From positions 1 through 42,547 of the IMG/VR virus record IMGVR_UViG_3300029305_001596: a stretch of DNA of 42,547 bases; one strand, given 5' to 3'. Positions 811-38,886 of this stretch are shown piece by piece (position 1 is the first letter of the stretch; every line of letters starts with the position of its first letter). The notes under the pieces are model-generated. The model worked only from the letters and a program-made list of their open reading frames with translations. It did not search any database and was not told the origin of the DNA. This stretch comes from a virus. The position numbers and the translations under genes were made by a program.

Positions 811-2501
811 ACCAGAACCCCCTTAATGCCGTAGATTCGCCACGGAACCAGCAGTTGGTTTTTAAGCTCGTTCGTTCCCATCGTGTTGTAGCTTGGATAG
901 CGGTAGCAGTCCTGGAATTCCACTCCCGTTGTTCTTGCGTATCCGCCTCTGCCGACAATGTACATAATGTCAGCAGTAAGGGTGACCTGCTTAGGGTTAA
1001 CGAAGCCATTTACGCCAACGCCAAACTCACCATAGCAAAAACCGTCCTCATCATTGTTGTATCTGAAATCAATACCAACCCTGCTATATGCGCTCAGATC
1101 AATAGAGATCTTTTGCGCTGCAAACTCGCTGGCTGGACTGGCGTTTTGCCACAGCAAATCCCTGCTGATGATGCTGCCTTTTGCAGCCACTTCACAGGCG
1201 AGCAGTTCGTTTGCATACCCCTTCGGCACATAGGGCGGCAGCGTATCGGCGGTGTATGCTCCTTCATAAAGCGCCGCCCATTCTGCCTTGGTTGAAGCTC
1301 CGTTTTCAAAACCTATTGAGAAGCTTAAATTTGTACCATCCGATGAGAATGCACTAATCGTATGGTTATTTTTATTGACAGAACCAAAATCTGTCCACGA
1401 GGAAGGAAGAGTTGCAGGAATGTTGTAGATTTTCGTCAGTATTTCGCCGTTCAGCTTGGCTGCATACGTTACGGTTTTTCCCAAAAGGCGCTCGTAATCA
1501 GCTACCTTTTGATAGATAAAACCACTTGTGTTTTCCTCTGAACGGATGGTCATACCATCATCATCAAAGGATAAAAGTGTATTGCTCATTCGGGCAATAT
1601 ATCTATCGATACACTCTTGCCACGCAGTTGTTTTTGTTATACCCCTCCGGTTCACAACTTTCGTAAAATTGCTGTTAACCAGCAGGTTGCTGGGAGTCAG
1701 GTAGTATTCCGGCGCTTTGCCGCCGAGCAGGGATGCATTTTTTGCTGTGCCATCCGCGCTCAGATAGTCTTCCGGAGGCTTTCCGCCAAGCAGGGAAGCA
1801 TTTTTTGCTGTGCCATCCGCAGGCAGAGCATTCAGCTGCCCGGGCGTGGGCAGCGGGTGCACATGATCGCCGCGTGCGGCACGGTTTAGCGTACCGGGCG
1901 CTGCTTCGCCGGGTGCAGCGGGCATTTCATCGCTGTAGGCAACGCCTTCTCCTTTCGGGCCGGTTGCAGGTACCCCGGTATCAACCCCTCCGATGAACCA
2001 GTTTCCGTTATTGCCAATGCTGAGCGCCTCTTTCACTGCGGCAGGGCCCGCCTCCGCTACCGCCCGTGCCGCCGCATTGGCAGCGTCCGCAGCCTTCCGA
2101 GCCTCAGCGATGACCACCTGCAAAACAGGCAGATCCGGATTCATGCCGGGATCGCCGTCTGTACCAATGTCCACGCCAACCACCGGTAGCACCACAAACG
2201 CCGCGTATTCCATCGGCGTGTATACTTCATAGCCGCCCTCTTCCATGGGGATCTGCAAACGCACATCCCAGAAGTAGGTGCCGGGGGCAAGGTTCGTTTC
2301 GTCCGCATCCAGCACCACAGTCAGTTCTTCATCGCTTGCGTTAAAGCGTTTCTGAAGCACCACTTCGTCGCTGGTAATGCGTTTCTTAATCGTGAATACG
2401 CCGTCCGTGCCTTCCGGCAGGTCGCGCCCGTCAAGCTCAATCTTCATCACCAGCGTATCGCCGCGGGAAAGCTCAACGTCGTATCCGTCAAACGTTACCA
2501 T
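807..2501 (-). CDS. Tail fibre / receptor-binding protein (564 aa)
   Basis: RGDHVHP motif and duplicated ADGTAKNASLLGGK(P/A)PE(D/Y)YL motif typical of phage fibres. Lies after the portal/tail genes. C-terminal beta-rich domain. Confidence 0.75.
   Translation of the reverse strand: MVTFDGYDVELSRGDTLVMKIELDGRDLPEGTDGVFTIKKRITSDEVVLQKRFNASDEELTVVLDADETNLAPGTYFWDVRLQIPMEEGGYEVYTPMEYAAFVVLPVVGVDIGTDGDPGMNPDLPVLQVVIAEARKAADAANAAARAVAEAGPAAVKEALSIGNNGNWFIGGVDTGVPATGPKGEGVAYSDEMPAAPGEAAPGTLNRAARGDHVHPLPTPGQLNALPADGTAKNASLLGGKPPEDYLSADGTAKNASLLGGKAPEYYLTPSNLLVNSNFTKVVNRRGITKTTAWQECIDRYIARMSNTLLSFDDDGMTIRSEENTSGFIYQKVADYERLLGKTVTYAAKLNGEILTKIYNIPATLPSSWTDFGSVNKNNHTISAFSSDGTNLSFSIGFENGASTKAEWAALYEGAYTADTLPPYVPKGYANELLACEVAAKGSIISRDLLWQNASPASEFAAQKISIDLSAYSRVGIDFRYNNDEDGFCYGEFGVGVNGFVNPKQVTLTADIMYIVGRGGYARTTGVEFQDCYRYPSYNTMGTNELKNQLLVPWRIYGIKGVLV
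1695..1820 (-). repeat. In-frame tandem duplication (2 x 63 nt) inside the tail-fibre gene
   Basis: 1695-1757 and 1758-1820 encode ADGTAKNASLLGGKAPEYYLT and ADGTAKNASLLGGKPPEDYLS; the nucleotide copies are near-identical. Confidence 0.85.
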
Positions 2502-18748: not shown

Positions 18749-18823
18749 TGGTACTGGCGGCAGGAATCGAACCCGCGACAAGCTGCGTATAAGGCAGCCG
18801 CTCTGCCACTGAACTACGCCAGC
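18749..18823 (-). tRNA. tRNA-Ile (anticodon UAU), CCA encoded
   Basis: Hand-folded cloverleaf: GCTGGCG/TA/GTTC-AGTGGCA-GAGC/G/GCTGC-CTTATAC-GCAGC/TTGTC/GCGGG-TTCGATT-CCTGC/CGCCAGT/A/CCA. Confidence 0.8.
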
Positions 18824-18945: not shown

Positions 18946-19021
18946 TGGAGCGGTGGGCGGGATTTGAACCCGTAGCCTACGGCTTGGAAGGCCGTTGCTC
19001 TGCCAGTTGAGCTACCACCGC
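18946..19021 (-). tRNA. tRNA-Gly (anticodon UCC), CCA encoded
   Basis: GCGGTGG/TA/GCTC-AACTGGCA-GAGC/A/ACGGC-CTTCCAA-GCCGT/AGGCT/ACGGG-TTCAAAT-CCCGC/CCACCGC/T/CCA. One A:C mismatch at the base of the T stem. Confidence 0.85.
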
Positions 19022-20815: not shown

Positions 20816-21213
20816 GCCATCAGCCTCCATGCTTCCGTCAGCTCACTGGCCCGTCGGCCAACCTGTTCCTTGGTCAGCCCTGTCACAATGGGATGGTCGC
20901 CGTCCTCTGTCATCTGGTACACGTCCAGCGTCTTGCCGTTGCGTATGGCCAGTTTCTTGAGGTCGCTGGCCACAAAGAACTTGTCCTCTCCGCAGGGAAG
21001 AATCCCAGCGCTCTGCGGCATCTCCTCTGTTTTCACAGGTTCGGTCGCCTTGCAGAACCTCGGCTTTCGGGTGTTTCCGCGCCCAATGTACTTGCAAACG
21101 CTGCTGTAGCTGATCTCTGTCAGGTCTGCAATCTCCCGGTTGCTGTAACCCTCTTCACGAAGCTCAAGCAGCTCCTGTACGCTGATCTCTTTGGTAATGG
21201 TGCGTCCTCTCAT
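20812..21213 (-). CDS. HTH DNA-binding early protein (133 aa)
   Basis: N-terminal [32 protein letters not shown] (LuxR/resolvase-type HTH). Confidence 0.55.
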
Positions 21214-21785
21214 TTCTCAACCACCTCAACCAACTCTACGCGCTCGCAACGAATCTTGCCGTCCGTGTTGTAAGGCACACACACACCAGCCAACCATTCC
21301 CAACGAATCAAAACCTTCCAGATGACGCCTTTGTAGTTTCTCTTCACCCATTCAAGAGGAGCAACGTTGATACCACAGCCGCAAACATCGGTTCTGTTAG
21401 CGTTCACAACTTCCTCAATAACGGAACCTCTTTCGATCTTCCAATTGGGGTTGGGCATATACATGCTGCCAAACGTTTTGTAGGCGATATAGCCATGTTC
21501 AGTGCGTTCAAAATGTGCTTCCAGGTAATTGACCGCACTGATGAGACCTTTGGCATCGCTCAGGTTGGCATCGCTCAGGTTGGCACCGCTCAGGTTGGCA
21601 CCGCTCAGGTTGGCACCGCGCAGGTCGGCATCGCTCAGGTCGGCACCGCGCAGGTCGGCATCGCTCAGGTTGGCATCGCTCAGGTTGGCATGGCGCAGGT
21701 CGGCATGGCGCAGGTCGGCACGGCTTCCGCCTTCGCCTTTCAGCCAGTTCTCATGGTCTTCCAGAATCTTTTTGAGGTTCAACAT
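21210..21785 (-). CDS. Pentapeptide-repeat protein with unknown C-terminal domain (191 aa)
   Basis: About 13 tandem A(D/N)L(S/R)xA pentapeptides ([56 protein letters not shown]), then a Cys/Trp-containing ~110-aa domain. Confidence 0.9.
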
Positions 21786-21825
21786 GGTTTGATCATCCTT
21801 TCTATCATTTCACAAGCTCGTCGAG

Positions 21826-22200
21826 CCGCTGAGGGTGTCCCAGAACAACCGTTCTATTTCACCCGAGTCTTTTTCTGTGCTATACTGGTTCATCCCCTTA
21901 TCAAGGGAAGAAAGGAGAGATGCCTCGTGAAGAGCATTTTGACTTTGCCCGGTTCCCGACCAGCTGCAGGGAGCAATGCTGATGCGTAAGGGGCGTTAGG
22001 GGCAGAACCAGTACTGCCAAAGTGATCTTGGCCTACAGAACCGTAGTTGTTTTGCGGCCTTCAGCGGCTCGCGTTATCCCTGTGCCACGGGCTTCTGTTA
22101 CAGAGGTGCAGGCTGTCGGGTAAACAAATACTGGGATCGGGGTGTATCGTGAAACAACCACGGTGCATCCTGATTTTTTGTTCTGGGGCATCCTCAGCGG
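21826..22200. repeat. 375-bp non-coding cassette bounded by 23-bp imperfect inverted repeats (21/23)
   Basis: CCGCTGAGGGTGTCCCAGAACAA at 21826-21848 versus TTGTTCTGGGGCATCCTCAGCGG at 22178-22200. No ORF of coding quality lies inside. Confidence 0.85.
21858..21886 (+). promoter_or_regulatory. Plus-strand promoter-like element inside the IR cassette (TTCACC-17-TATACT)
   Basis: Read directly. Followed by AAAGGAGAG and a 20-codon ORF (21920-21982, MPREEHFDFARFPTSCREQC). Confidence 0.4.
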
Positions 22201-22218
22201 ATTGGGTTGATCCTTGGT

Positions 22219-22233
22219 CTACTTTGTGGACAA
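22219..22233. promoter_or_regulatory. Distal operator copy O4 (CTACTTTGTGGACAA) at the 3' end of the cro-like gene
   Basis: Shares ACTTTGTGGACAATG with O1. Lies about 240 bp from the main operator cluster. Confidence 0.5.
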
Positions 22234-22434
22234 TGATGGGAAAAAAAGAGCAAGGAAGCTCTCGCTGTCCTGAACTTCGATAGCTTTTGCTACCGCTTGC
22301 ATATCTTCTGCATCCAACTTTCGGCGACCATTCATCACATCACTGGCCTTCTTTCGCGGCCATCCCATAGCTTTTCCAAACGCTGTCGCGGACGGAAATT
22401 TATCAAGGATCGCGCCTCGAAGTGATACCTGCAC
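22219..22434 (-). CDS. Cro-like small HTH regulator (about 71 aa; start GTG 22434, TTG 22437 or GTG 22443)
   Basis: Divergent from the repressor gene. SATAFGKAMGWPRKKASDVMNGRR HTH. AAGGAGG SD. Confidence 0.6.
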   Translation of the reverse strand: MQVSLRGAILDKFPSATAFGKAMGWPRKKASDVMNGRRKLDAEDMQAVAKAIEVQDSESFLALFFPSLSTK

Positions 22435-22461
22435 CAACGTCACCTCCTTATTTTTTCAAGT

Positions 22462-22554
22462 CCACTTTGTGGACAATGTGATTGTAACACAGTCTGATAT
22501 CATTGTCAACCACTTTGTGGACAAAAAAGCGAAAAAAATTGACTTAGTGGACAA
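22462..22554. promoter_or_regulatory. Operator cluster O1-O3 of the lysis/lysogeny switch
   Basis: CCACTTTGTGGACAA at 22462-22476 and 22510-22524 (inverted core CCAC-TTT-GTGG). TTAGTGGACAA at 22544-22554. Confidence 0.7.
22481..22509 (-). promoter_or_regulatory. Early (lytic) promoter: TTGACA-17-TACAAT on the minus strand
   Basis: tgtcaa at 22504-22509 and attgta at 22481-22486. Flanked by O2 (abutting -35) and O1 (over the predicted start site). Confidence 0.75.
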
Positions 22555-22567
22555 TTTGTGTTATACT
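22539..22567 (+). promoter_or_regulatory. Repressor-gene promoter: TTGACT-17-TATACT on the plus strand
   Basis: Read directly. O3 lies in the spacer. 23 nt upstream of the AAAGGAGG SD of the repressor gene. Confidence 0.7.
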
Positions 22568-24781: not shown

Positions 24782-25885
24782 ATGCCACGTCAAACATTGA
24801 AACGCCGTGAAGACGGCAGGTTCCGTGTCAAGTACCATGGCATTCAGTTCTACGGCTCCACACAGAAGGAAGCCATGCAGAAGCGCGATGAATACAAAAA
24901 ACGTCTGGAAGCAGGCATCCTTGAAGAAAACAGCATCAAAACCTATGCTGCACGCTGGGTGTCCACATACAAAAGCCATGTTTCGCCAAACATGTACAAC
25001 ACCCACGTCCGCATCCTCAATCGCCTGTGTGATCATATCGGCAATAAGCCCATGGCTGATGTCACCACCATGGACCTGCAGTCGTTCATCAACACCGTCA
25101 GCGATAAATCACAGAAAACCATCAATGCATACCGTGACACCGTCAAAGGCATGTTCAAATCCGCTTTAGGAGACCGTGTAATCGCCTTCAACCCAGCCCT
25201 TGGTATCACACTTCCAAAAGGAACCAAAGGCTCCCACAGGGCTATCACAGCCGAAGAACGGCAGCTTCTCTTATCTGTCCAGCATCGCATCCGCCCAGGT
25301 GTTCTTACCATGCTGTATGCCGGTCTGCGTCGCGGTGAAGCAATGGCTCTTGACATTGACCGTGATGTGGATTTTGAATCCAAAACCATAACCGTCAGGG
25401 AAGCTCTCCGCTTTGAGGGCGGCCATCCTGTCCTCACCAACACCAAAACAGAGGCAGGTGAGCGCACCATCCCCCTTATGCCCATTTTGGTGGAAGAGCT
25501 TAAAGGCAGGCATGGATTGCTCATGGTAGATGTTGATGGCAACCTCATGTCAGAATCAGCTTTTGACCGTGCGTGGTCTTCTTATATCACCACATGCGAA
25601 ACCACCCTCAATGGCTGTGCAAAAAGATGGTACGGCAAAAAGAAAGAACACCAGAATCTGGAACTTCCCCCATGGCGTTCTGTTGATATCCGCCCTCATG
25701 ATCTGCGCCATTCCTTCTGCACCATGCTATATGATGCTGGCATTGATCTGAAAACAGCGCAGAAATGGATGGGGCATGCTGATTATTCCATGATCATGCG
25801 AATCTATGCGCACCTCACAGAAGAAAAAGAAGCCGAAGCCAAAAAAGCTCTTCTGGGGTTCAAAACGGGGTTCAACGCTCAATGA
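24782..25885 (+). CDS. int: Tyrosine integrase (367 aa)
   Basis: C-terminal catalytic region RPHDLRHSFCTMLYDAGIDLKTAQKWMGHADYSMIMRIYAHL (R..HxxR..Y). Adjacent to a tRNA-derived attP. Confidence 0.95.
   Translation: MPRQTLKRREDGRFRVKYHGIQFYGSTQKEAMQKRDEYKKRLEAGILEENSIKTYAARWVSTYKSHVSPNMYNTHVRILNRLCDHIGNKPMADVTTMDLQSFINTVSDKSQKTINAYRDTVKGMFKSALGDRVIAFNPALGITLPKGTKGSHRAITAEERQLLLSVQHRIRPGVLTMLYAGLRRGEAMALDIDRDVDFESKTITVREALRFEGGHPVLTNTKTEAGERTIPLMPILVEELKGRHGLLMVDVDGNLMSESAFDRAWSSYITTCETTLNGCAKRWYGKKKEHQNLELPPWRSVDIRPHDLRHSFCTMLYDAGIDLKTAQKWMGHADYSMIMRIYAHLTEEKEAEAKKALLGFKTGFNAQ
25855..25875. repeat. Arm-type repeat pair GGGGTTCAA x2 left of attP (inside the integrase 3' end)
   Basis: GGGGTTCAA at 25855-25863 and 25867-25875. 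The same 19-mer GGTTCAAAACGGGGTTCAA recurs at 26092-26110. Confidence 0.6.
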
Positions 25886-28897: not shown

Positions 28898-31800
28898 TTA
28901 TTTCTTCAGCCAATTGGCCTCAAAGTTGTAGTCATCATACAGCCCGGTCTGGTACAGGATCCGGCGAATCTCCTTGCGCTGCGCTTCGCTCGCCTGCTTG
29001 TAATGTTCCTTCATGAAGCTGGTAACAGTGCTCTTGATGGAGCTTGCTTTGGTACCGGCATACTCAAGGCCCTTTACATAGCTGCCAAGGTTCTTGTAGT
29101 TGCCACGGCTCACTTCGTCGGCAATTGATGATTTATTGATGCTTTTCTGTTTGGTCGAAACAGTCTCCATTGCAGTTTCATAGCCTTCAGTTCCCTTGCC
29201 AAAAGCCTCGGCAACAGCAACGCTCTTGGCCAGATCCACAATGGCTTTCACCTTCTTTGCCTTTTCGTCATCGCTCAACGCCTGGTATTCCTTGCTGCCG
29301 ATCAGTTCTTCCACGCCAGTCACCGCAATCTCTCTGCCGTTTGCATCGGCGTAGGTCCCGCCCTTATACCACAGTTCGCCATAACGTTTCTTATACGCTT
29401 CTTTCTGGAAGGGGTCCAGCGTTATGCTGTTTCCCTTGCTGGTCAGCGTATCCTTCGTTCCGCTCAAAGCGTCAACCGGCAGCATGTCGCTTGCGCCGGT
29501 CGCTTCACTCAGCCGCAGCAGTTCATTCACAACGGCGTCATCTCTTGCATCTGTCGTGGTAAAGGGGTCAATGAAGTTGCGCCAGTTTTCCTTGGTCATC
29601 ACGCTCTGGCCGGTCACATCCACCTTCTCAGGCAGCAGCTCATTACGGATCCAGGGAAGCTTATTGATCAGTCCGCTCTTCAGTGCAGCCATCATCACAT
29701 TCTTGTCCTTGGTATCACGCACATACGGGTCCACAGCGTTGGCAAGCTGACTGATCAGTGCAGGAACGTTCTGGCTTAAGGCGCTCTCAATCAGCGTGTC
29801 ACGGATGTTTTCCGATGTGCTGCCGTACCCTTCAAAGATATCCTTCAGTCCGCTCATAAAACTCGCGTCCAGGATCTGATCCATGCTGGCTGTCGTTGCG
29901 CTCATCATAGCATTCCATGCATCTTCGTCATCTTCAAAAATGCTGTTGGCAGCAACGCCCATAATGATGGGAGAAACCGCAGGCGCAAATGTGCTCAGGC
30001 TCATGTATTCATTGGTCAAAGGATTGTAAACATAGGGCGTGTACTGCGCACCTACAGCCGTTTGCAATCCGCGCTTCTTTGCATCATCCTCGTCCTGCGT
30101 ACCCATTTTGATCACGCCCAGGCTGCCAAGCATCATGCCCAGGCCAACCATCGCACTGCCGGTCAGCCCTCGCGCCATCCCTTCCACAAACCGCTGCTGT
30201 TCAAAGGTTTCTCCGCGCACTGCTCGCATGCCGTGCTGTATGGCCGTCTGTGCAAGGCCCATGGGGCTGTACTGCCACATGCGTTTCACAATGTTGGTAG
30301 GAACGCCGGTAAACGGCATAATGTAGTCCAGTGCATCGCCGATTCCCGGTATGCGTTTCATCGCGCTCAGCGCGTCCCGCACAGCGTTATCCTCGGTAAA
30401 AGTGGCAAAGTTGGCGTCGTTCTCCGCACGCTCCACCATCTGGTCATAGGTCGGTGTGGTTCCGTCCTCGTTGTGAAGAAGCCCACGATCCAGCAGCTTC
30501 TGCTGTTCGGAAAGACTGTTCACATACGCCTTCTTCCAGAAGTTTCGGTCACCAAAGCTCATCAGGAAGCTTTCCACGTTGCGGAAGGTTTCCAGCGCAT
30601 TACTCTGATACACACGCCCTTCACGTCTGGTGTTGTACTTGTCTCCCTGCCTGTTTTGCACTTCCGCCTTGTCCACAAAGAAGTCACGGAAAGTATCCTT
30701 TGTTTCCTGTGCAAAGGCCTTCCATCCGTCAGCACGTTCCTTCATGTTCAGGGATGCCACTGTACGCTGCCCACTTGCTGCGCCTATGGCCGTGTCAAGA
30801 CCAACGGCAATTCCGTGGCTCACTGCGTTCATAGTATTCTGCGCCACGTTGCCAATCACGTTTCTCATGGGGCTGGTCAGTGTGCCAAGCATGCTCATGT
30901 ATCGCCATGTACGCAGCTTTTCGCGGCCGGATACGGGCGTAATGTTGCCAAACGCCTCGTAGGCACGGGCAATGGCAAGGTCAGCATCTCTTCCTCCGCT
31001 TTCAGCACCAGCACCAACAAACAGGCCAAGCTGTGCGCCAATGTAGTCAAGGTCGGCTGTCGTTACCACTGCAAGTCCTTCGTTCATGTACTCAAGGCGC
31101 TGCACAAGAGTAAGGCCGTTCATCTCATTCATGGGATACGGTGTGGCCAGAATAGCCTCTAACATTCGCTGTTTCACCGTGGCACGGTTGTAGTTGATGC
31201 CAGGGCGACGTTCCTTGCCAAGTTTGTACTGATCAATCAGTGCTCTCTGGTATCCGTTCAGTTCAACGCCATAACGGCTGTCGTAAGAAGCCTGTTCAGG
31301 TTCCGGCAAACCAAGCAGCTTACTGCGCACCTGTTCAGCTGCGCTATCCATAGCCTTCTTTTTGGGTGCATGCGTCCGCAGCTCCTCCTGAAGGCTATTT
31401 TCAAGGCTGCCTGCAACCATTGCCTTTGCGCCAGTGGGGCTCATCTTGCTGAACAGTTTTCGTGCCTGCAGCTCCTGGCCTGCCTTGGTGCCCTCGCGGT
31501 TGTACTTGCTGGCAATGGCAAGCAGCGTTTCTGCGTCACCGTTGTGGTTTGCAATCGCCATTATCACATTGGCTTCCGCAGTATCGTCTGCACTGAAACG
31601 TTCCAGCCCAAGCAGTCTGTCGCGTTCCTGCTCAAAACCGTTTTGCACAATGCGGTTGTACCCGCGCTCTGCCTGCTCCATGTTGGTGTCAATCTCATAG
31701 TTCAGTTCTTCCGGGTTCTGGTACATTTCCTGCTTCAGCCAGTCTGGCATGGCTTCGCTTTGCTGCACGCTCTGCCTGGCAAACTGTCTCTCGCCCATGG

Positions 31801-34800
31801 GGCGCTGCACTTGCTGTTCAGGTCCCATTGCCGAAAGCTGTATGTACTGCCGGATCATGTCGCGCAGCACGTCCTCGCTGGGCAGGCTGTACTGGGTGCG
31901 CGGATGCTGTTCCTTGTATTCTCGCACAAAACGCTCCACAATGTCCTGTGCAACAGGAAGGGTGTTTGCACCACCCTTGTACTCGCCAAGCACGCGCATG
32001 GCCTCTTCCATGTTGAAATTGGGCTGCACAGCCTCCTGCGGCGCGCCAACACCATCATTGTCGTACATCTTAAAGTCGATCAGCGTCTTCCAGTACCCTT
32101 CGGGTGCTACCCAGTGGCCATCTTCGTCTTTGCTCAGGAACATGTCAAACTTCGGAATGCGTCCGTCCTCTTCGCACATGCGAAGGTATGTCCGGGCATT
32201 CTCATCGCCGCTCTTGCTGTAGTCCCAGTAGTCAATGGGGTAGAAGTTTTCTTCCACGTTCTTATACTTGAATTTTCCGTTCTTGTACTGGCCAACCACG
32301 CGGCGTTCGTTCTGCCAGTCGGTAAAATTCTCATATTCGTCCAGCCCCATCAGCTTCAGCTCACGCTCGCCCCATCCGCTCTTGTGGAAGGGGATGATGT
32401 AGTCGAGCTGCGGATCCTTCATCGCGGCAAGCACATGCTCCCGGCTCACGCCAACAATAATGGTGCCAACATTCTTGCTGTACCGTTCACGCAGCGCAAG
32501 CGCATCGGCAATGTCCATGCCCTCAGTCGGGCTGAATGCAAGCGTTCCGTCAGGGTTGAGACCGTTTCCTTCAGCAATCAGGCTCAGGTTGATCTTGATG
32601 CCTGTGTCACCAAACACAGCCGCAAAGTTCGGCACCTTCGTATACGCCTGGCTGGTAAGTCCCTTGGCGCTCATATCCAGCACAGCCTGCATCATGTCGA
32701 TCAGATGCGGGGTCTCAAAATCGCTGAAGCTCTGCACGCGTAAGCCGCCGATTTCAGTTATCTTCTTGATCTGGCCCTTGGTAAGGCTGCGAACATCGCC
32801 TCGGTATTCCGTGCGCAGCTGCACCACCTTCGGGTTGTTACTGCCCTTGCTGTTCATGTTGTCAATGAAATCCTGATAGGCTTTCGGGTGCTCGTGGCGC
32901 AGTTTCTCAAGACCGTCGCTGGTGGTCACCTCATCAAGCCTTGGCTTGTATTCGCCGTTGTAGCCCTCCAGCCATTCACCGGCAAACTTGCCAAGCTGCC
33001 TGCGTCGGCTCTCCACATAACACACGCCGCACGGGCTTTCATAGCCGCTTTCCGCCAGCATGTTGCGAAGACCAATCAGATCATCGCTGGTAAGCACCGT
33101 ATTGGGCAGCAGATGCTGAATCGCGTCAAAGGTTCCCTGATACAAAAGACGCTTGGCGCACAATGTACTTGCGTCCAGCGTCTTCACATATTCCTGATTT
33201 TGCTTCAGCATCACCTGGTTGTCGGCTGCAATGTAATCCAGACGATCCTTGTCAGCGGCAATCGTTGCAGCAACGCTGTTCACATCGTCGATCCAGCGTT
33301 CCACCTTTATGGCGTCAAAACCCTTGCCCAACAGCTGCTGCCTTGCTGTTTCCTTTTCCTTTTCCGTCCAGCTGGAAAGGCTGTAGTCCTTGGCAACCGT
33401 GCCGGAAGGGGTCTCTTCGGCAATCACATTGCCGTCAGAAGTTATTTCTCGGTTTTCAGCGGGTACTTCGCCACGATCTCCCTGGCGAATGCCTCGCGCA
33501 TTTCGTCCTGCTCCTGCTCCGTTTTCCCCTGAAGCTTCATTGCGTTTTCCGCCTTCACGGAAATCGGTACTTTCCTCTCCATACACGCTGTGAAGTATGC
33601 TTCGTTGCGTTTCAAGGTCGTATCCCTCCTGCTCAAGTTCTATCGCATCCTGCTCTATAGCGTTTACCAGTTCAACGTTCTCTGCATCGTATACCTCAAG
33701 CACAGCTTCAGGTTCGCCGTTTGCATCAGTATACACCAGAACATTGTCCATTGCAACAAGGCTGCCGCCGTTCTTCCGCTCCACAAACTGGTATCCACGG
33801 TAGTTCTTGTCGTTCATGTTGGAACGCAGCCGTGCGTACTCGTTGGGGTCAAGCAGGTCAGGAAGTGAATACTGCAAACGCTCCCCTGTCACATCGCCTG
33901 CTTCAAGCCCGTATTCAGAAAGGTCGATAGCGCCTCCCTTTCTGGGGATGGGTGTGTATGCTTCCCTGATCTTTGCTTTTTCAGCTTCGGATGCGTTCTG
34001 GTATTCCTCGGATGCCATCACTTCCTCCAGCTGCTGGCGAAGAATCGCATCCGTGTCAGCATCGTCAAGAATGCGGGTTACCTTCATTGCACCAGTGATG
34101 ATCCAAGGAACTGTATCGGGATTGGGGTTCGTGCGGTATCTGTAATAACCGGCAGTTCCGTCCTCCTCACGAGGCAATCTGGGCAAACCAGCAAGAGAAT
34201 GCTGGAACTTGCCATTTGCATTGTAACCGTAGCTCATAGCCTCTTCCTGATAGTCGTGATCAGCTGCGCACTCGCATTCTGCCCACACAAAGTTTTCGGG
34301 GAACAATTCCTTCTTCCCGATTTCGGGGTTCAGCCTGTTAAACTGTGTTGCCTTGGGAGAATCGCCAAGGTGCCAACCGGGTCGGTATGCAAGCTGCGTC
34401 TTGCCCGTGTTGGTTCCTTTGCCGCCAGCCTGTACCTGCGGTCGGCCAGTCTTGCTGTCTGCTCCGCGAGGCGCTGCATCTGCATTCAACCAAACGCCAA
34501 CAGGGGTCGGCTCGCCACCCGGATTTGCAACCATCGGCGGGTACAAACCGGGCTTGTTCTTAAAAACAGCAAACACCTTGTAGCCCTTGATGGTGTGCAC
34601 AGGGTCAGGTTCCTCACGAAGCGAATACTGAATGCCGTCTGTGGGGAACTCTCTCTGCTTATTTTCTGCACCCAGCGCCGTTTCAAACAGCTCTCTGGCA
34701 CGGTCCAGCTCGCTGTAATCCTCGCGTGCAATGCCCGTCAGCTTGCTGATGAAGTTCTTGATCGTCTCAAGGATCCTGCGTGCCACACTGGGCTTTTCAG

Positions 34801-37800
34801 CGGCCAGACGATTGATACTCTCCTCATCGCCGTACAGGATCTTGCGGGTCAGGTCGGCTACGATCTCGCGCCGCGCCTCATCCTCAGTAAGCGGCGTTGC
34901 ATCCACAGTCGGGTCCAGTGCAGCCATCATCTCAAGCTGCGTGTTGTATCGCTTCATGCGTGCAGCAATATCCCTGTCAAGCTGCCCTTCATCACTGCCT
35001 GAATACGCAATGCCAATCAGAGCGTCTGCAAACTCCTGATAGCTTTCGCTCTGTTCCATGCGATGGGTCAGTTCGTGCAGCACCGTGCCGTACAGCATGT
35101 CGCTCTGCGTGGCGTTCTGGTCAATCTCCACCTTGCCGGTTCTGGCGTTGTAGCTGCCATTATAACGCAGCGCAGTACCTCCCTTGGTAGTGTCCACCAC
35201 GTCAAACTGCACGCCGTACTTCTTGGTCAGCTGCTGCATAAACCTGTTGCGGCTCTCCTGTGCTTCAGGGGTCATCTCTCGCTGGATCTCCCTGTAGATG
35301 GCGTCGATCCGTTGCTGTTCTTCAGGCGTTGCATCTGCAAAGTTGCTGCTGGTAAAGTCAGCAATGCCCATTGCCGTCACGTTGCCGCTTTCACGGGCAG
35401 CGCTGCGCACGGCAGCACGCTCTGCCTTGACAATCGCATTTTGGTTGGCAACGGCAGCCAGCTCCGTCTGCGCCATCGCCAGTGCGGTTTCCTGCACATT
35501 AGCCTTGGCGGCTTCGTATTCACCCTGTGCTTCCTGTGCCTCGCGCTGGGCAGTGACCATCTCTTCCTGCGCCTGGTTCTTTTCTTCGATAACTGCCAGC
35601 ACTTCGTTGGTCGCCTTGGGGTCGGCAGGGTTTTCGTTCATGCGCCGGGTGGCGTCGGCCAGCTTCTGCTGCGTCAGTTCTTTCTTGCGCTGTGCGCTTT
35701 CAAAACGATCTGCTGCCTTGCTCACGCTCTTCTTTGCCGCTTCCACAGCAGATCCATCAATGGCTCCGCTGGCCATCATTTCGCCTGCCTTGGCTTCGGT
35801 CACCACTTTGGTGGCGCGTTCACGAACCGACTCAGCAATGGTCGGATCCTGCAAATCCTGCGCCACCGCATTCACCAGCGTATTCGCATCTTCAGCAGTG
35901 ATGGCGGATTTCTTCATCAGGCTTTCGGCAACCTTCACGCTGTTGGCATAGGAGGGGAACACAGACACAGAACTGCCAATGGAGATCAATCCGCCCATCA
36001 GCGCATCAGCAGTCAGCTCACGGCCATATTCCTGCCAGTCGCGCTCCAGCGGATTCTCTCCCTTGATCAGGCCCGTCACAGCCTCGGTCACAATGTTTTC
36101 CGCAGGCTCCTGCACCGCTTCGTTCACAGCCGTCTTGCCAATGTTCACCATGAAATGACCAAACATCTTGCCCCAGCGCGAAAGCCCGGCCACCACACTG
36201 GAACCGGGAACAAGGGCCAGTTTCTCCACAACCTCTTCCACATAGGGCATGTTGCTGGCCTCGATGTTTTTCAAAATACCGTCCCACTGGCTCATGGCAG
36301 CCGTCACCGCAGCAGCGCCCAAACCGGCAGCAGCGCTTGTCAGGTAGTCTTCACCTTCGTTGTAGCTGTCCCACATTTCGCGCAGTCCGCTCTCTGCGGC
36401 AAAGGGAGTGCTGCTGATCATACGGTTCAAAAACTTCAGTTTATCGCCAAACACAGCAGTGGATGCATTGCCAAGCGCCTTTGCAACGCCGCCCATCTGC
36501 TGCATCTTGATCATCTCACTGCCAACGGTGCCAGCCATAATCTCAAGCGGCGTTCCGTTCTCCAAAAGCACCTCGTTGTGCCCAGCCAGTGTGGTGTTCA
36601 TTTCATTGGCAAATTCAGCGCCGTAATCGGCTACCTCTTCATTGCCAAAAAGCTTTCCTGCACCGGTAATGATGCTGCCAACAAACTTGTCCACCAGGTC
36701 AGTAATGGCATAAGCCGTGTGATCCAGCGCCCACATCGCAACATTGGAAACGCCAATGCCGTCGTTGTTCTGCGCTTCCACCAGCTTGCCGTCCATGCCA
36801 AGCACACCGTCCAGCCAGCCAATGAACCCGCCAAGCTCTTCATCGCCAATGTCGTAGGCTTCCTTCAGCAGCATCTCATACTCAGCCAGCTCCACGCGAA
36901 CATCGGGATCCATCATTTTTCTGGGCAGATCACCGGCAATCGCCATCTGCATCAGCGCAGCGGTCGCCTTCTGGCTGCCCTCACTGTGCACCATGTCCTG
37001 TATGTATTCGTCGCCGCTTTGCTTCACAGCGCCTTCGATCAGCTGAAACTGGTACTGGCATGCAGTGCGGTAGTCGTTGTTGTACAGTGCCTCGTCGATC
37101 CCTGCATACAGTTCTTCTTTCGTCATAGAAGGGCTTTTAACAGGGGTTTCAGAAAGGGATTCGGGTGTTAAAGCCTCAACTTCCGGCGTGGGTTTATAGC
37201 CCTCCTGCGTGCGTTTTGCGGCACCGTCAGTATCGGTGCGCATCACAGCGTCATTGCCGCTCTTTGCGCCTGCCCACAAGCGCCCCTCGCTGTAAATGTC
37301 AGCGGGGGGAGTTGCGTACAGGCTCTGCTTGCTGGCCATCACACCAGCGCCCGGTATGGTGCTTTCGTCAATCAGACTGCCACGGGCATTCACCTGGGCA
37401 ATCTTTTCCGCGTTCACCGCAAGGCCAAGCGCTGCTTCGTTCTTGGCCGCATTGTCCTCTGCCCACTTGGTGTCCCACTGCAATCGGATGCTCTGTTCCA
37501 GCGCTTCTTTGTCAAAGCTGATCTCATGCAGCGGTTCCACTTCCATCTTGTCCAGATGAGGCGTGCGGCTGGTGCCGTCAGCGTTGTTGAAGATGAAATG
37601 CACCGCTTCATCCGCGCTGTCAAATCCACCGCTGCGGATCGTGTCCTGCATCCGCTTGTGGAAGTCGGCCAGTTCACGGTCGTATGCCTCCGTAGCCAGA
37701 AAACTCTGGTAGGTATCGCGGAAGGCTCGCTTCTCTTCATTGGTGCCTCCGGCCAGCACCTTTCGGTAGTTCTGGTCAAAGTAATCCTTGCTGGTGGCTT

Positions 37801-37984
37801 CTTTGCCAAAACGCTCACGGGCAGCAGTGTATCGCGGGGCACTCAACAACCTGCTCCGCTCAATCTCCGCCGCTTTTGAAGGACGATTCGTCCCAGAAGT
37901 CCCATTGCTGGCTGGTTTCTCCCAGCCTTCTTCCTTTGCTATGCTCTGCAGCCGGTTCAGTGCTTTCTTGAACTTATCGTCCAT
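28898..37984 (-). CDS. Giant multidomain (polyvalent-type) protein, 3,028 aa, with an HExxH metallopeptidase-like motif; probable virion-delivered protein
   Basis: Uninterrupted ORF. ATG 37984 lies 5 nt after GAGGG (GTG 37996 alternative). GTVLHELTHRMEQSE. Coiled coils, Gly/Ala-rich hydrophobic helices, and several large blocks I cannot assign. Confidence 0.85.
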   Translation of the reverse strand: MDDKFKKALNRLQSIAKEEGWEKPASNGTSGTNRPSKAAEIERSRLLSAPRYTAARERFGKEATSKDYFDQNYRKVLAGGTNEEKRAFRDTYQSFLATEAYDRELADFHKRMQDTIRSGGFDSADEAVHFIFNNADGTSRTPHLDKMEVEPLHEISFDKEALEQSIRLQWDTKWAEDNAAKNEAALGLAVNAEKIAQVNARGSLIDESTIPGAGVMASKQSLYATPPADIYSEGRLWAGAKSGNDAVMRTDTDGAAKRTQEGYKPTPEVEALTPESLSETPVKSPSMTKEELYAGIDEALYNNDYRTACQYQFQLIEGAVKQSGDEYIQDMVHSEGSQKATAALMQMAIAGDLPRKMMDPDVRVELAEYEMLLKEAYDIGDEELGGFIGWLDGVLGMDGKLVEAQNNDGIGVSNVAMWALDHTAYAITDLVDKFVGSIITGAGKLFGNEEVADYGAEFANEMNTTLAGHNEVLLENGTPLEIMAGTVGSEMIKMQQMGGVAKALGNASTAVFGDKLKFLNRMISSTPFAAESGLREMWDSYNEGEDYLTSAAAGLGAAAVTAAMSQWDGILKNIEASNMPYVEEVVEKLALVPGSSVVAGLSRWGKMFGHFMVNIGKTAVNEAVQEPAENIVTEAVTGLIKGENPLERDWQEYGRELTADALMGGLISIGSSVSVFPSYANSVKVAESLMKKSAITAEDANTLVNAVAQDLQDPTIAESVRERATKVVTEAKAGEMMASGAIDGSAVEAAKKSVSKAADRFESAQRKKELTQQKLADATRRMNENPADPKATNEVLAVIEEKNQAQEEMVTAQREAQEAQGEYEAAKANVQETALAMAQTELAAVANQNAIVKAERAAVRSAARESGNVTAMGIADFTSSNFADATPEEQQRIDAIYREIQREMTPEAQESRNRFMQQLTKKYGVQFDVVDTTKGGTALRYNGSYNARTGKVEIDQNATQSDMLYGTVLHELTHRMEQSESYQEFADALIGIAYSGSDEGQLDRDIAARMKRYNTQLEMMAALDPTVDATPLTEDEARREIVADLTRKILYGDEESINRLAAEKPSVARRILETIKNFISKLTGIAREDYSELDRARELFETALGAENKQREFPTDGIQYSLREEPDPVHTIKGYKVFAVFKNKPGLYPPMVANPGGEPTPVGVWLNADAAPRGADSKTGRPQVQAGGKGTNTGKTQLAYRPGWHLGDSPKATQFNRLNPEIGKKELFPENFVWAECECAADHDYQEEAMSYGYNANGKFQHSLAGLPRLPREEDGTAGYYRYRTNPNPDTVPWIITGAMKVTRILDDADTDAILRQQLEEVMASEEYQNASEAEKAKIREAYTPIPRKGGAIDLSEYGLEAGDVTGERLQYSLPDLLDPNEYARLRSNMNDKNYRGYQFVERKNGGSLVAMDNVLVYTDANGEPEAVLEVYDAENVELVNAIEQDAIELEQEGYDLETQRSILHSVYGEESTDFREGGKRNEASGENGAGAGRNARGIRQGDRGEVPAENREITSDGNVIAEETPSGTVAKDYSLSSWTEKEKETARQQLLGKGFDAIKVERWIDDVNSVAATIAADKDRLDYIAADNQVMLKQNQEYVKTLDASTLCAKRLLYQGTFDAIQHLLPNTVLTSDDLIGLRNMLAESGYESPCGVCYVESRRRQLGKFAGEWLEGYNGEYKPRLDEVTTSDGLEKLRHEHPKAYQDFIDNMNSKGSNNPKVVQLRTEYRGDVRSLTKGQIKKITEIGGLRVQSFSDFETPHLIDMMQAVLDMSAKGLTSQAYTKVPNFAAVFGDTGIKINLSLIAEGNGLNPDGTLAFSPTEGMDIADALALRERYSKNVGTIIVGVSREHVLAAMKDPQLDYIIPFHKSGWGERELKLMGLDEYENFTDWQNERRVVGQYKNGKFKYKNVEENFYPIDYWDYSKSGDENARTYLRMCEEDGRIPKFDMFLSKDEDGHWVAPEGYWKTLIDFKMYDNDGVGAPQEAVQPNFNMEEAMRVLGEYKGGANTLPVAQDIVERFVREYKEQHPRTQYSLPSEDVLRDMIRQYIQLSAMGPEQQVQRPMGERQFARQSVQQSEAMPDWLKQEMYQNPEELNYEIDTNMEQAERGYNRIVQNGFEQERDRLLGLERFSADDTAEANVIMAIANHNGDAETLLAIASKYNREGTKAGQELQARKLFSKMSPTGAKAMVAGSLENSLQEELRTHAPKKKAMDSAAEQVRSKLLGLPEPEQASYDSRYGVELNGYQRALIDQYKLGKERRPGINYNRATVKQRMLEAILATPYPMNEMNGLTLVQRLEYMNEGLAVVTTADLDYIGAQLGLFVGAGAESGGRDADLAIARAYEAFGNITPVSGREKLRTWRYMSMLGTLTSPMRNVIGNVAQNTMNAVSHGIAVGLDTAIGAASGQRTVASLNMKERADGWKAFAQETKDTFRDFFVDKAEVQNRQGDKYNTRREGRVYQSNALETFRNVESFLMSFGDRNFWKKAYVNSLSEQQKLLDRGLLHNEDGTTPTYDQMVERAENDANFATFTEDNAVRDALSAMKRIPGIGDALDYIMPFTGVPTNIVKRMWQYSPMGLAQTAIQHGMRAVRGETFEQQRFVEGMARGLTGSAMVGLGMMLGSLGVIKMGTQDEDDAKKRGLQTAVGAQYTPYVYNPLTNEYMSLSTFAPAVSPIIMGVAANSIFEDDEDAWNAMMSATTASMDQILDASFMSGLKDIFEGYGSTSENIRDTLIESALSQNVPALISQLANAVDPYVRDTKDKNVMMAALKSGLINKLPWIRNELLPEKVDVTGQSVMTKENWRNFIDPFTTTDARDDAVVNELLRLSEATGASDMLPVDALSGTKDTLTSKGNSITLDPFQKEAYKKRYGELWYKGGTYADANGREIAVTGVEELIGSKEYQALSDDEKAKKVKAIVDLAKSVAVAEAFGKGTEGYETAMETVSTKQKSINKSSIADEVSRGNYKNLGSYVKGLEYAGTKASSIKSTVTSFMKEHYKQASEAQRKEIRRILYQTGLYDDYNFEANWLKK

Positions 37985-37992
37985 CGGAACCC

Positions 37993-38886
37993 TCACTTCT
38001 TCTTTTTGTCCAGAATACTTGCAGCTTTATTGGCAGCCAATCCGCTCTTGCTGCTCACCTTGCTTGTCAGGCTCTGCATCGGGGTAGGCGCGGCAGGCGG
38101 TTTCTGCAGCGCGTCATACAGGTTCTTTGCCGCTTCCTTGTTGTATACCTGTGCATTGGCAGCCAGCGCGTCAACCAGCGTGTTCACAGGCTTGCCGGTG
38201 TAGGACGCGGTGGTGGTTTTCTTGTTTCCGCTTCCGCTGCTTCCGCCGCCTCCGCTGCTTCCGCCGCCGCCATACTTGGCGTTGAACTCTGCCTGCCACA
38301 TCGCATACTCACGGTCAGCCAGTGCTTCGGCGTTCTGATATTCATATATCTGCATCGCAAGCTGGTTGGCATCCTGCCCACGGCCATACTGCTGGTTCTC
38401 CAGTTCATCCAGGTAGGCCAGAATATCCGCCTGCTCCTGTGCGCTCAGGCTCTCCAGTTCAGCCGCCAGCTGGCTTCCAAGCAGCGCCTTCTGCTGCTGC
38501 AGGTTCTTGGTCTGCGCCGCCTGCGTGTCCAGTATTGCCTGCTGCGCTTCTACGCCCTGCATGCCAATGTTGGCCAGGCTGGCCGCATTGTAGCTGCTGC
38601 GCTGCATGCCGCGGCCAAGGCTTGCACGGTCAAAGGCACTGACTGTCTGCGCGTAGTTCTTCGCGCTCTGCTCAAGTTGCTTGCCGTATGTCGCATCAAG
38701 GCTTGCAAGCTGCTGGTCTATCAGCATTGCATTGGTATCATGCTCCTGCTGCGCTGCCAGCTCTTTGGCGTCGTATACCGCGCCATATCGGTCCTGCGCT
38801 TTCTTGCGCATTTCTTCTTCGGTCAGTGGAGTGTAGCTCTGCCCGTTCAGTTTGGCAAGCAGCTGCTCCAGGTTGGAACTGGCCAT
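37993..38886 (-). CDS. Coiled-coil protein with Gly/Ser linker (297 aa), unknown late function
   Basis: ATG 38886 lies just after the holin stop. Gln/Ala-rich heptads. GGGGSSGGGGSSGSG linker. Lys-rich tail. Confidence 0.6.
   Translation of the reverse strand: MASSNLEQLLAKLNGQSYTPLTEEEMRKKAQDRYGAVYDAKELAAQQEHDTNAMLIDQQLASLDATYGKQLEQSAKNYAQTVSAFDRASLGRGMQRSSYNAASLANIGMQGVEAQQAILDTQAAQTKNLQQQKALLGSQLAAELESLSAQEQADILAYLDELENQQYGRGQDANQLAMQIYEYQNAEALADREYAMWQAEFNAKYGGGGSSGGGGSSGSGNKKTTTASYTGKPVNTLVDALAANAQVYNKEAAKNLYDALQKPPAAPTPMQSLTSKVSSKSGLAANKAASILDKKKK

Follow-up and report, generated by a model that had tools for sequence, protein, structure and literature searches.

The 42,547-nt viral DNA of IMG/VR record IMGVR_UViG_3300029305_001596, called here the window in its full length, is a complete 42.5-kb temperate phage genome encoding a terminase, a portal protein, a DnaB-like helicase, an SSB, a methylase and one tyrosine integrase. 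It is a phage of gut Clostridia and is carried by the JGI samples 3300031555, 3300018494, 3300023371, 3300024269 and 3300032167. Between the start of a pentapeptide-repeat protein gene at 21785 and the stop codon of a small cro-like helix-turn-helix (HTH) gene at 22219 lies a 433-nt gap, almost all of which is bracketed by two inverted arms of 23 nt. The original prediction, made from the letters alone, placed this 375-bp cassette beside the genetic switch of the phage and preferred to read it as an invertible promoter. The location and the bracketing of the gap are as it described them, and the interior between the arms is a complete gene for a structured RNA of the FuFi-1 class (Rfam RF02986). 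The 375-bp unit is a self-contained, moron-like gene comprising a sigma-70 promoter of its own, the sequence of an RNA of about 289 nt, and an intrinsic terminator, the loop of which takes part in a pseudoknot (Table 1). FuFi-1 was reported as a terminator-ended motif with a possibly sophisticated function, no self-cleavage and no known role (Weinberg et al. 2017, PMC5737381), and the copy in the window is a divergent member of this orphan family.

Table 1. Features of the FuFi-1 cassette and its two neighbouring genes in the window, with the arm families found around FuFi-1 genes
Feature	Position	Strand	Remarks
Pentapeptide-repeat protein gene	21210-21785	-	first early gene after the cassette
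Left arm, CCGCTGAGGGTGTCCCAGAACAA	21826-21848		outside the RNA, whose predicted start lies about 45-67 nt downstream
FuFi-1 promoter, TTCACC-17-TATACT	21858-21886	+	extended -10 TG; equivalent -35/-10 at the same distance from the RNA start in other lineages
Predicted full-length FuFi-1-class RNA	21893-22181	+	about 289 nt; ends inferred from promoter and terminator
5' domain outside the Rfam model	21896-21960	+	hairpin CCCCTTATCAAGGG; GAAAGGAG-like box, 21910-21919; second hairpin; TTTTGAnTTTGCC, 21937-21949
Mini-ORF in the lineage-conserved frame, MKSILTLPGSRPAAGSNADA	21927-21989	+	GTG start; the ATG ORF 21920-21982 is in a different frame
Rfam FuFi-1 (RF02986) match	21969-22173	+	61.8 bits, gathering score 59.6; E = 6.5e-11; full model, 1-175
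Pseudoknot 5' partner	22040-22052	+	pairs with the terminator loop, 22152-22164
Third partial arm copy, CCTTCAGCGG	22058-22067	+	within the 14-nt stretch 22058-22071 (CCTTCAGCGGCTCG), 13/14 complement of 21822-21835; inside the window-specific insertion
Intrinsic terminator	22133-22179	+	19-pair stem (22133-22177), 7-nt loop, T-run; integral structural element of the RNA
Right arm, TTGTTCTGGGGCATCCTCAGCGG	22178-22200		overlaps the final two T of the terminator T-run; 19 nt from its end to the cro-like stop (22219)
cro-like small HTH gene	22219-22443	-	first gene of the lytic operon; promoter 22509-22481
Arm family window			23 nt
Arm family A			16-18 nt
Arm family B			11-12 nt
Arm family L226			16 nt
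Arm family L266			41 nt
Arm family L353			23 nt

An insertion of about 45 nt that is specific to the window accounts for its low score; all 15 comparison loci reach 108-148 bits. In those loci the Rfam model spans just the 3' ~160 nt of a conserved unit of 280-380 nt, and an nhmmer profile built from full-length relatives matches the window twice, at 21998-22182 (E = 1.9e-18) and at 21909-21991 (E = 1.3e-9). On these matches the membership of the window in FuFi-1 is judged secure despite its score. Two conserved boxes of the family are present, GCAGAACC at 22002-22009 and GGGTAAACAAAT at 22118-22129. An alignment of 17 lineages yields a consensus fold of 54 pairs; with the pseudoknot added, 93.6% of its cells are paired, against 35-43% in slid controls, and two-sided changes occur at 41 of 59 pairs. 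The pseudoknot with the terminator loop shows compensatory changes in all six of its pairs across these lineages, in which the promoter, the 5' domain and the terminator are likewise kept. The promoter itself had been called correctly from the letters, and it carries an extended -10 TG.

A two-box search pattern recovered more than 100 viral contigs with FuFi-1. Used on a genome collection, the same pattern gave 120 matches, of which five were genuine and the rest mostly chance; the genome matches fall in Lachnospiraceae, Eubacterium and Marvinbryantia. FuFi-1 is a motif of Firmicutes or Fusobacteria, commonly in phages, and the window agrees with this distribution. Each phage genome carries one FuFi-1 cassette. 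A distant blastn search with 21780-22260 found no match among GenBank phages. Skipping-rope (RF02924), an orphan RNA of the same 2017 survey, occurs in two FuFi-1 phages, L029 (10560-10630) and L178 (1497-1565), in the latter about 370 nt upstream of FuFi-1; it was not detected in the window.

Conservation begins directly after a sigma-70-type -35/-10 pair at every genuine locus and follows one order: the hairpin GCC...GGC, the invariant GAAAGGAG box, another hairpin, the invariant TTTTGAnTTTGCC box and then the part covered by Rfam. Every 5' element of the lineages is present in the window (21858-21960). The invariant TTTTGAnTTTGCC is complementary to GGGTAAACAAA at 22118-22128; a putative helix between the 5' box and the invariant GGGUAAACAAA is without any variation, and the sequences are therefore compatible with pairing. 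After the invariant GGAG box (GAAAGGAG), in nearly every lineage, a start codon follows 7-10 nt later and opens a frame of 12-36 codons with the common beginning MT(K/Q/N)LLxLP. Where the TTG start is lost, in L025 and L085, an ATG lies one codon upstream. The Shine-Dalgarno sequence and 20-codon ATG open reading frame (ORF) noted by the original prediction do exist; their coding meaning does not hold, as they belong to the conserved 5' domain of the RNA, which shows no coding-type selection, and the frame conserved between lineages is the one with the GTG start. Polymorphisms are spread evenly over the three codon positions in three groups of relatives (24/27/24, 7/6/6 and 6/3/4), and non-synonymous changes outnumber synonymous ones by 3-5:1, so that a selected peptide is unsupported. 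The region is conserved at the nucleotide level and probably encodes no selected peptide; ribosome binding, or a translated leader without a functional peptide sequence, is possible.

The 23-nt inverted repeat around this gene is real and non-random. Its coordinates had been given exactly, and the arms are complementary at 21 of 23 positions across a spacing of 329 nt. A degenerate pattern for both arms, allowing up to three mismatches, finds just these two copies in the window, where 100 shuffles lead to an expectation of 0.00, and a shuffle test restricted to the flanks reaches the observed repeat score in 0 of 400 shuffles. On the plus strand both mismatches become G:U pairs, as had been noted, while the antisense strand has A:C at these places, and the arm energies are -53.7 kcal/mol for the plus strand (E+) against -39.5 kcal/mol for the antisense strand (E-). 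The plus strand of 21815-22215 folds at -172.9 kcal/mol (z = -5.6), and this fold contains the outer helix; the minimum-energy fold of the antisense strand retains this helix as well. The third partial copy that had been reported also exists, at the position given in Table 1 and not at 22068-22077, and its single mismatch, like the other two, would be a G:U wobble in plus-strand RNA and A:C in antisense RNA.

A survey of 26 dereplicated FuFi-1 lineages, with significance set at 0 of 400 shuffles, finds a significant flanking repeat in nine, a weaker or decayed one in three or four more and none in about 12. With L353, which was added afterwards, six unrelated arm sequences surround homologous interiors. 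Their placement is always the same, on the promoter side and just past the terminator: the left arm overlaps the -35 element or the spacer in most families (four of the first five) and covers the whole promoter in L266, while the right arm lies 0-45 nt past the terminator. Two families show compensated changes. In family A a double change converts GGCGGGGA/TCCCCGCC to GGCAGGGA/TCCCTGCC or the reverse at seven loci, with one-sided intermediates in four; in family B, ACCAC/GTGGT is matched by ACCGC/GCGGT. In L021 and L068 the inner arms have decayed and a perfect outward extension of 10 bp has been gained. Comparison with relatives, which had been proposed as a check on the cassette, thus bears out a conserved promoter and, in these two families, maintained pairing, and does not bear out conservation of the repeats, which are limited to a subset of lineages and are unrelated in sequence. 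Because about 12 lineages do without them, the arms are not part of the FuFi-1 RNA itself; the bracket is a recurrent and optional feature that looks selected. Beyond the window, G:U falls on the antisense strand at 16 arm mismatches and on the sense strand at four, a trend that is confounded by possible strand-biased mutation and to which the arms of the window run opposite. Two simple rules for the arms were rejected. That they stand exactly where an antisense transcript must cross fits L178 and fails for group D, and that the right arm is a twin convergent promoter fails because the L266 copy has no promoter score and the arms of family A and of the window have no -10 element.

The surroundings of the cassette are those of a lysis-lysogeny switch. 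Divergent promoters lie at 22509-22481 (minus) and 22539-22567 (plus), with a gene for a CI-like repressor of 119 aa on the plus strand; the cro-like protein has 74 aa. Four copies of the box ACTTTGTGGACAA, one with a single mismatch, occur at 22221-22233, 22464-22476, 22512-22524 and 22542-22554, where about one is expected; three lie between the divergent promoters, and the fourth is 243 bp off, just past the cro-like stop and 20 nt from the right arm. They are probably the operators, with a distal site. FuFi-1 is transcribed in the direction of the repressor gene and against the lytic operon. In other lineages it is positioned as in the window or directly inside the switch region, and all lineages agree in its orientation with respect to a small minus-strand gene, whose start is 17-65 nt away from the FuFi-1 promoter. 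No minus-strand promoter was detected between the cro-like and pentapeptide genes, and the lytic transcript must therefore cross the cassette. Inside the last codons of the cro-like ORF, on the minus strand, is a terminator-like hairpin with a run of seven T (22249-22266), and given this hairpin, lytic transcription may need read-through or antitermination before it reaches the cassette. Beyond the cassette, the pentapeptide gene contains eleven in-register 15-nt repeats (21522-21755) and encodes a protein of 191 aa (Pfam Pentapeptide, E = 3.9e-23). Its relatives (L121-L139) have neither FuFi-1 nor a homologous upstream region, and so provide no usable empty site. An exact-protein look-up of the cro-like protein returned no record; relatives of the CI-like repressor in metagenomes are at most 47% identical, and among them L178 alone carries FuFi-1. 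In L093, a family A phage, strong promoter-like sites at 2236-2264 (+) and 2372-2344 (-) stand face to face about 70 bp apart between the FuFi-1 cassette and a CI-like gene; this arrangement in family A phages recalls the switch of coliphage 186.

The explanation that we tentatively prefer, while holding it somewhat short of probable, is that the arms pair in the lytic early transcript as it crosses the cassette, looping out the antisense-FuFi segment as an RNase III-type duplex. A transcript from 22509-22481 would read through the cro-like gene and across the cassette to the early genes, and would be the one RNA that must hold both arms. These would form a long-range duplex enclosing about 330 nt of antisense FuFi-1; its near end would lie 19 nt past the cro-like stop, and 41 nt would separate its far end from the next start codon. 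Such a duplex would have the length of an RNase III-type substrate, and cleavage would probably detach the early message downstream from both the cro-like message upstream and the antisense-FuFi segment. Arms that are close to the FuFi-1 transcript and outside it are what is expected if the stem must form in the crossing transcript alone. The long-range RNA helix that had been listed as a third option survives in this form and not in its plus-strand form: since the arms lie outside the predicted plus-strand RNA, pairing would require a read-through RNA or, as is more plausible, the early transcript of the antisense strand.

Several observations favour pairing in the lytic transcript. The predicted duplex is near-perfect and spans 23 bp both in L353 and in the window, where it contains two single mismatches or wobbles; it reaches 41 bp in L266 and measures 11-18 bp in families A and B. 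L266 shares the layout of the window, with its 41-bp arms starting 9 nt after the cro stop; L093 has a leftward promoter beyond the cassette; L178 has nothing downstream on the antisense strand, and no arms. To these we add the antisense-strand fold, the compensated changes and the wobble trend of 16 against four. Other observations weigh on the opposite side. The mismatches of the arms and of the third copy in the window would be wobbles in a sense RNA, whereas an antisense RNA would have A:C there, and the wobble bias elsewhere could come from strand-biased C-to-T mutation rather than selection. Group D (L035/L088) shares the gene layout of the window and has no arms, which makes the arms dispensable. 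Those of family B are just 11-12 bp long and resemble repeated operator-like boxes. Arm pairing and RNase III cleavage are predictions, and the hairpin at 22266-22249 in the 3' end of the cro-like gene might limit read-through.

Movement of the cassette would give the arms a different meaning. Known invertons, such as fimS of Escherichia coli, the cwpV and flagellar switches of Clostridioides difficile and the invertible promoters of Bacteroides, are promoter segments of a few hundred bp between inverted repeats of 9-35 bp, beside the genes that they regulate. The window has inverted repeats flanking a promoter-containing segment, and repeats of 23 bp around an interior of 329 bp match this geometry. 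Flipping by a recombinase or by homologous recombination would turn the FuFi-1 gene and its terminator round with respect to the early operon, setting a strong terminator in the sense orientation within it, and gene conversion during inversion would also account for the compensated changes. Unlike an inverton, the interior is a complete gene with a terminator and not a bare promoter, and the arms vary between lineages that share it. When each locus was oriented by its RNA and its flanks were compared, none of 117 loci with usable flanks showed a left flank matching the reverse complement of another's right flank, against 2610 left-left and 2171 right-right pairs of homologous flanks in the same orientation, on assemblies, which show just the majority orientation. 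On five other contigs, from other samples, the cassette region is 100% identical and in the same orientation, and orientation relative to the neighbouring genes is the same in all lineages. The phage genome has no invertase: its sole recombinase is the tyrosine integrase (24782-25885), and a 133-aa HTH protein with an HTH_7-like match has no catalytic domain. An enzyme encoded by the host might still act on the repeats. Where the arms carry the promoter, as in L266, inversion would moreover be functionally symmetric. An inverton, the reading first preferred, is thus very improbable, and a rarely flipping switch that reversibly locks and unlocks prophage induction while one orientation dominates is more improbable still. 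The related proposal that the promoter fires antisense through cro in the manner of lambda P_RE is unlikely as well, the promoter being FuFi-1's own and its transcripts expected to stop at the terminator before cro. We also regard as quite unlikely that the arms are boundary repeats left by movement of the cassette, like the ends of a miniature inverted-repeat transposable element (MITE) or a moron, with little or no present function. Such an origin would suit a complete promoter-to-terminator unit, and in family A, phage homology breaks near the outer arm ends and the arms move together with the cassette; a -35 element inside a terminal repeat, too, recalls the ends of insertion sequences. 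In addition, the left cassette flank of L067 is 97% identical, on the same strand, to the right flank in L009 and L041. The cassette thus sits on opposite sides of the same 78-aa gene, which is evidence of relocation in a group without a flanking repeat. Against boundary repeats, the visibly relocated cassette, that of group D, lacks arms, and no target-site duplication is seen in most lineages or, as the original prediction had already stated, in the window (left flank ...GTCGAG, right flank ATTGGG...). The arm pattern, present in two copies, has no match when searched for exactly among 2.9 million viral contigs. Between lineages no part is less conserved than the arms, the reverse of what holds for ends recognised by a transposase, and this together with the missing duplication and the two copies defeats the MITE option; the compensated changes and the outward extension argue for ongoing selection on pairing.

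The arms might instead be paired DNA sites for a regulatory protein (repressor, Cro or another) at the promoter and past the terminator, whose binding would govern the promoter, possibly with DNA looping. In four of the first five families the left arm lies over the promoter's -35 element or its spacer, which speaks for such sites, as do the operator-like box 20 nt from the right arm of the window and the resemblance of the family B and L226 arms to switch-region boxes (GTTTAC/GTAAAC; GGAAATC), and co-variation at two sites could reflect co-evolution with a binding protein. Perfect or near-perfect identity over 16-41 bp far exceeds the usual need of a protein, however, and strictly inverted, non-palindromic arms are unusual for looping operators. 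In the window, moreover, the arms are unrelated to the four ACTTTGTGGACAA boxes and the left arm lies upstream of the -35 element, and on balance this account is unlikely. A longer plus-strand RNA, starting upstream of the left arm and reading through the terminator, would place FuFi-1 within a 23-bp stem. All three mismatches of the window favour that strand, as does its stable fold with the outer helix formed, and a weak promoter-like site (TCAACA-18-TATCAT, 21779-21808) lies upstream. Conservation across lineages, on the other hand, begins right after the -10 element and not upstream of it; the left arm holds the -35 element in most families, and so lies outside any transcript that FuFi-1's own promoter starts; the terminator is strong and forms an integral part of the structure; and the wobble bias beyond the window points to the opposite strand, while about 12 lineages have no arms to close. 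A plus-strand helix is therefore decidedly improbable.

Pairing of the arms in the lytic transcript would have parallels in known systems. RNase III cuts long-range stems that flank 16S and 23S rRNA and rRNA intervening sequences, as well as T7 early mRNA sites and lambda sib, which lie in untranslated spacers, tens of nt from the next gene. The arms of the window are similarly hundreds of nt apart and would form about two helical turns around an enclosed RNA segment; they differ in that the segment is the antisense of an RNA gene, that the arms occur in some lineages only and are as short as 11-18 bp, and that cleavage is here only predicted. The short antisense RNAs of phage immunity regions, lambda OOP and P22 sar, have their own promoter and terminator and no flanking repeats. 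Like them, FuFi-1 is transcribed against the early lytic transcript near cro and is fully complementary to part of it. Unlike them, it is 280-380 nt long with a tertiary structure conserved across phages with unrelated flanks, and this size and conservation point to a function beyond simple antisense pairing. Morons, in the sense of Hendrix and colleagues, are autonomous promoter-gene-terminator units between phage genes. The unit in the window resembles them, being compact, equipped with its own promoter and terminator, placed between two genes of an operon and present in some relatives only; it differs by its product, a structured RNA, by being antisense to the host operon and by its inverted-repeat bracket. 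As to the FuFi-1 motif itself, the 3' domain of the window matches the covariance model end to end, has the boxes GCAGAACC and GGGUAAACAAAU and, like the motif, is a terminator-ended RNA in a Firmicutes phage; the insertion, the doubled length of the conserved unit with its 5' domain and promoter, and the arms outside the family model set it apart.

Elsewhere in the window, two tRNA genes lie on the minus strand of the early region, tRNA-Ile (anticodon TAT) and tRNA-Gly (anticodon TCC), at 18749-18823 and 18946-19021. A minus-strand ORF of 3032 aa (28898-37996) has no Pfam match in the precomputed annotation, and the sister genome L146 contains a 3028-aa version of it.

FuFi-1 is one of the few orphan bacterial RNAs whose conservation hints at a sophisticated function, and this locus and its relatives supply it with a testable anatomy. 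The conserved unit, which includes a promoter and a 5' domain holding an invariant Shine-Dalgarno-like box, has about twice the length of the database model. Its place in temperate phages of gut Clostridia is consistently at the lysis-lysogeny switch, inside it or next to it, and complementary arms that evolved independently bracket it in about a third of the lineages. As far as the present analysis shows, neither the conserved 5' half with its promoter nor the recurrent, lineage-specific bracket is described in Rfam or in the literature searched. What emerges is no new kind of element; it is a defined structure for the FuFi-1 gene, a consistent location at the switch and a testable hypothesis. 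If the arms act in the lytic transcript, they would represent a recurrent RNA-level accommodation or regulation of an antisense RNA gene within an operon, and would link FuFi-1 to the lysogeny decision.

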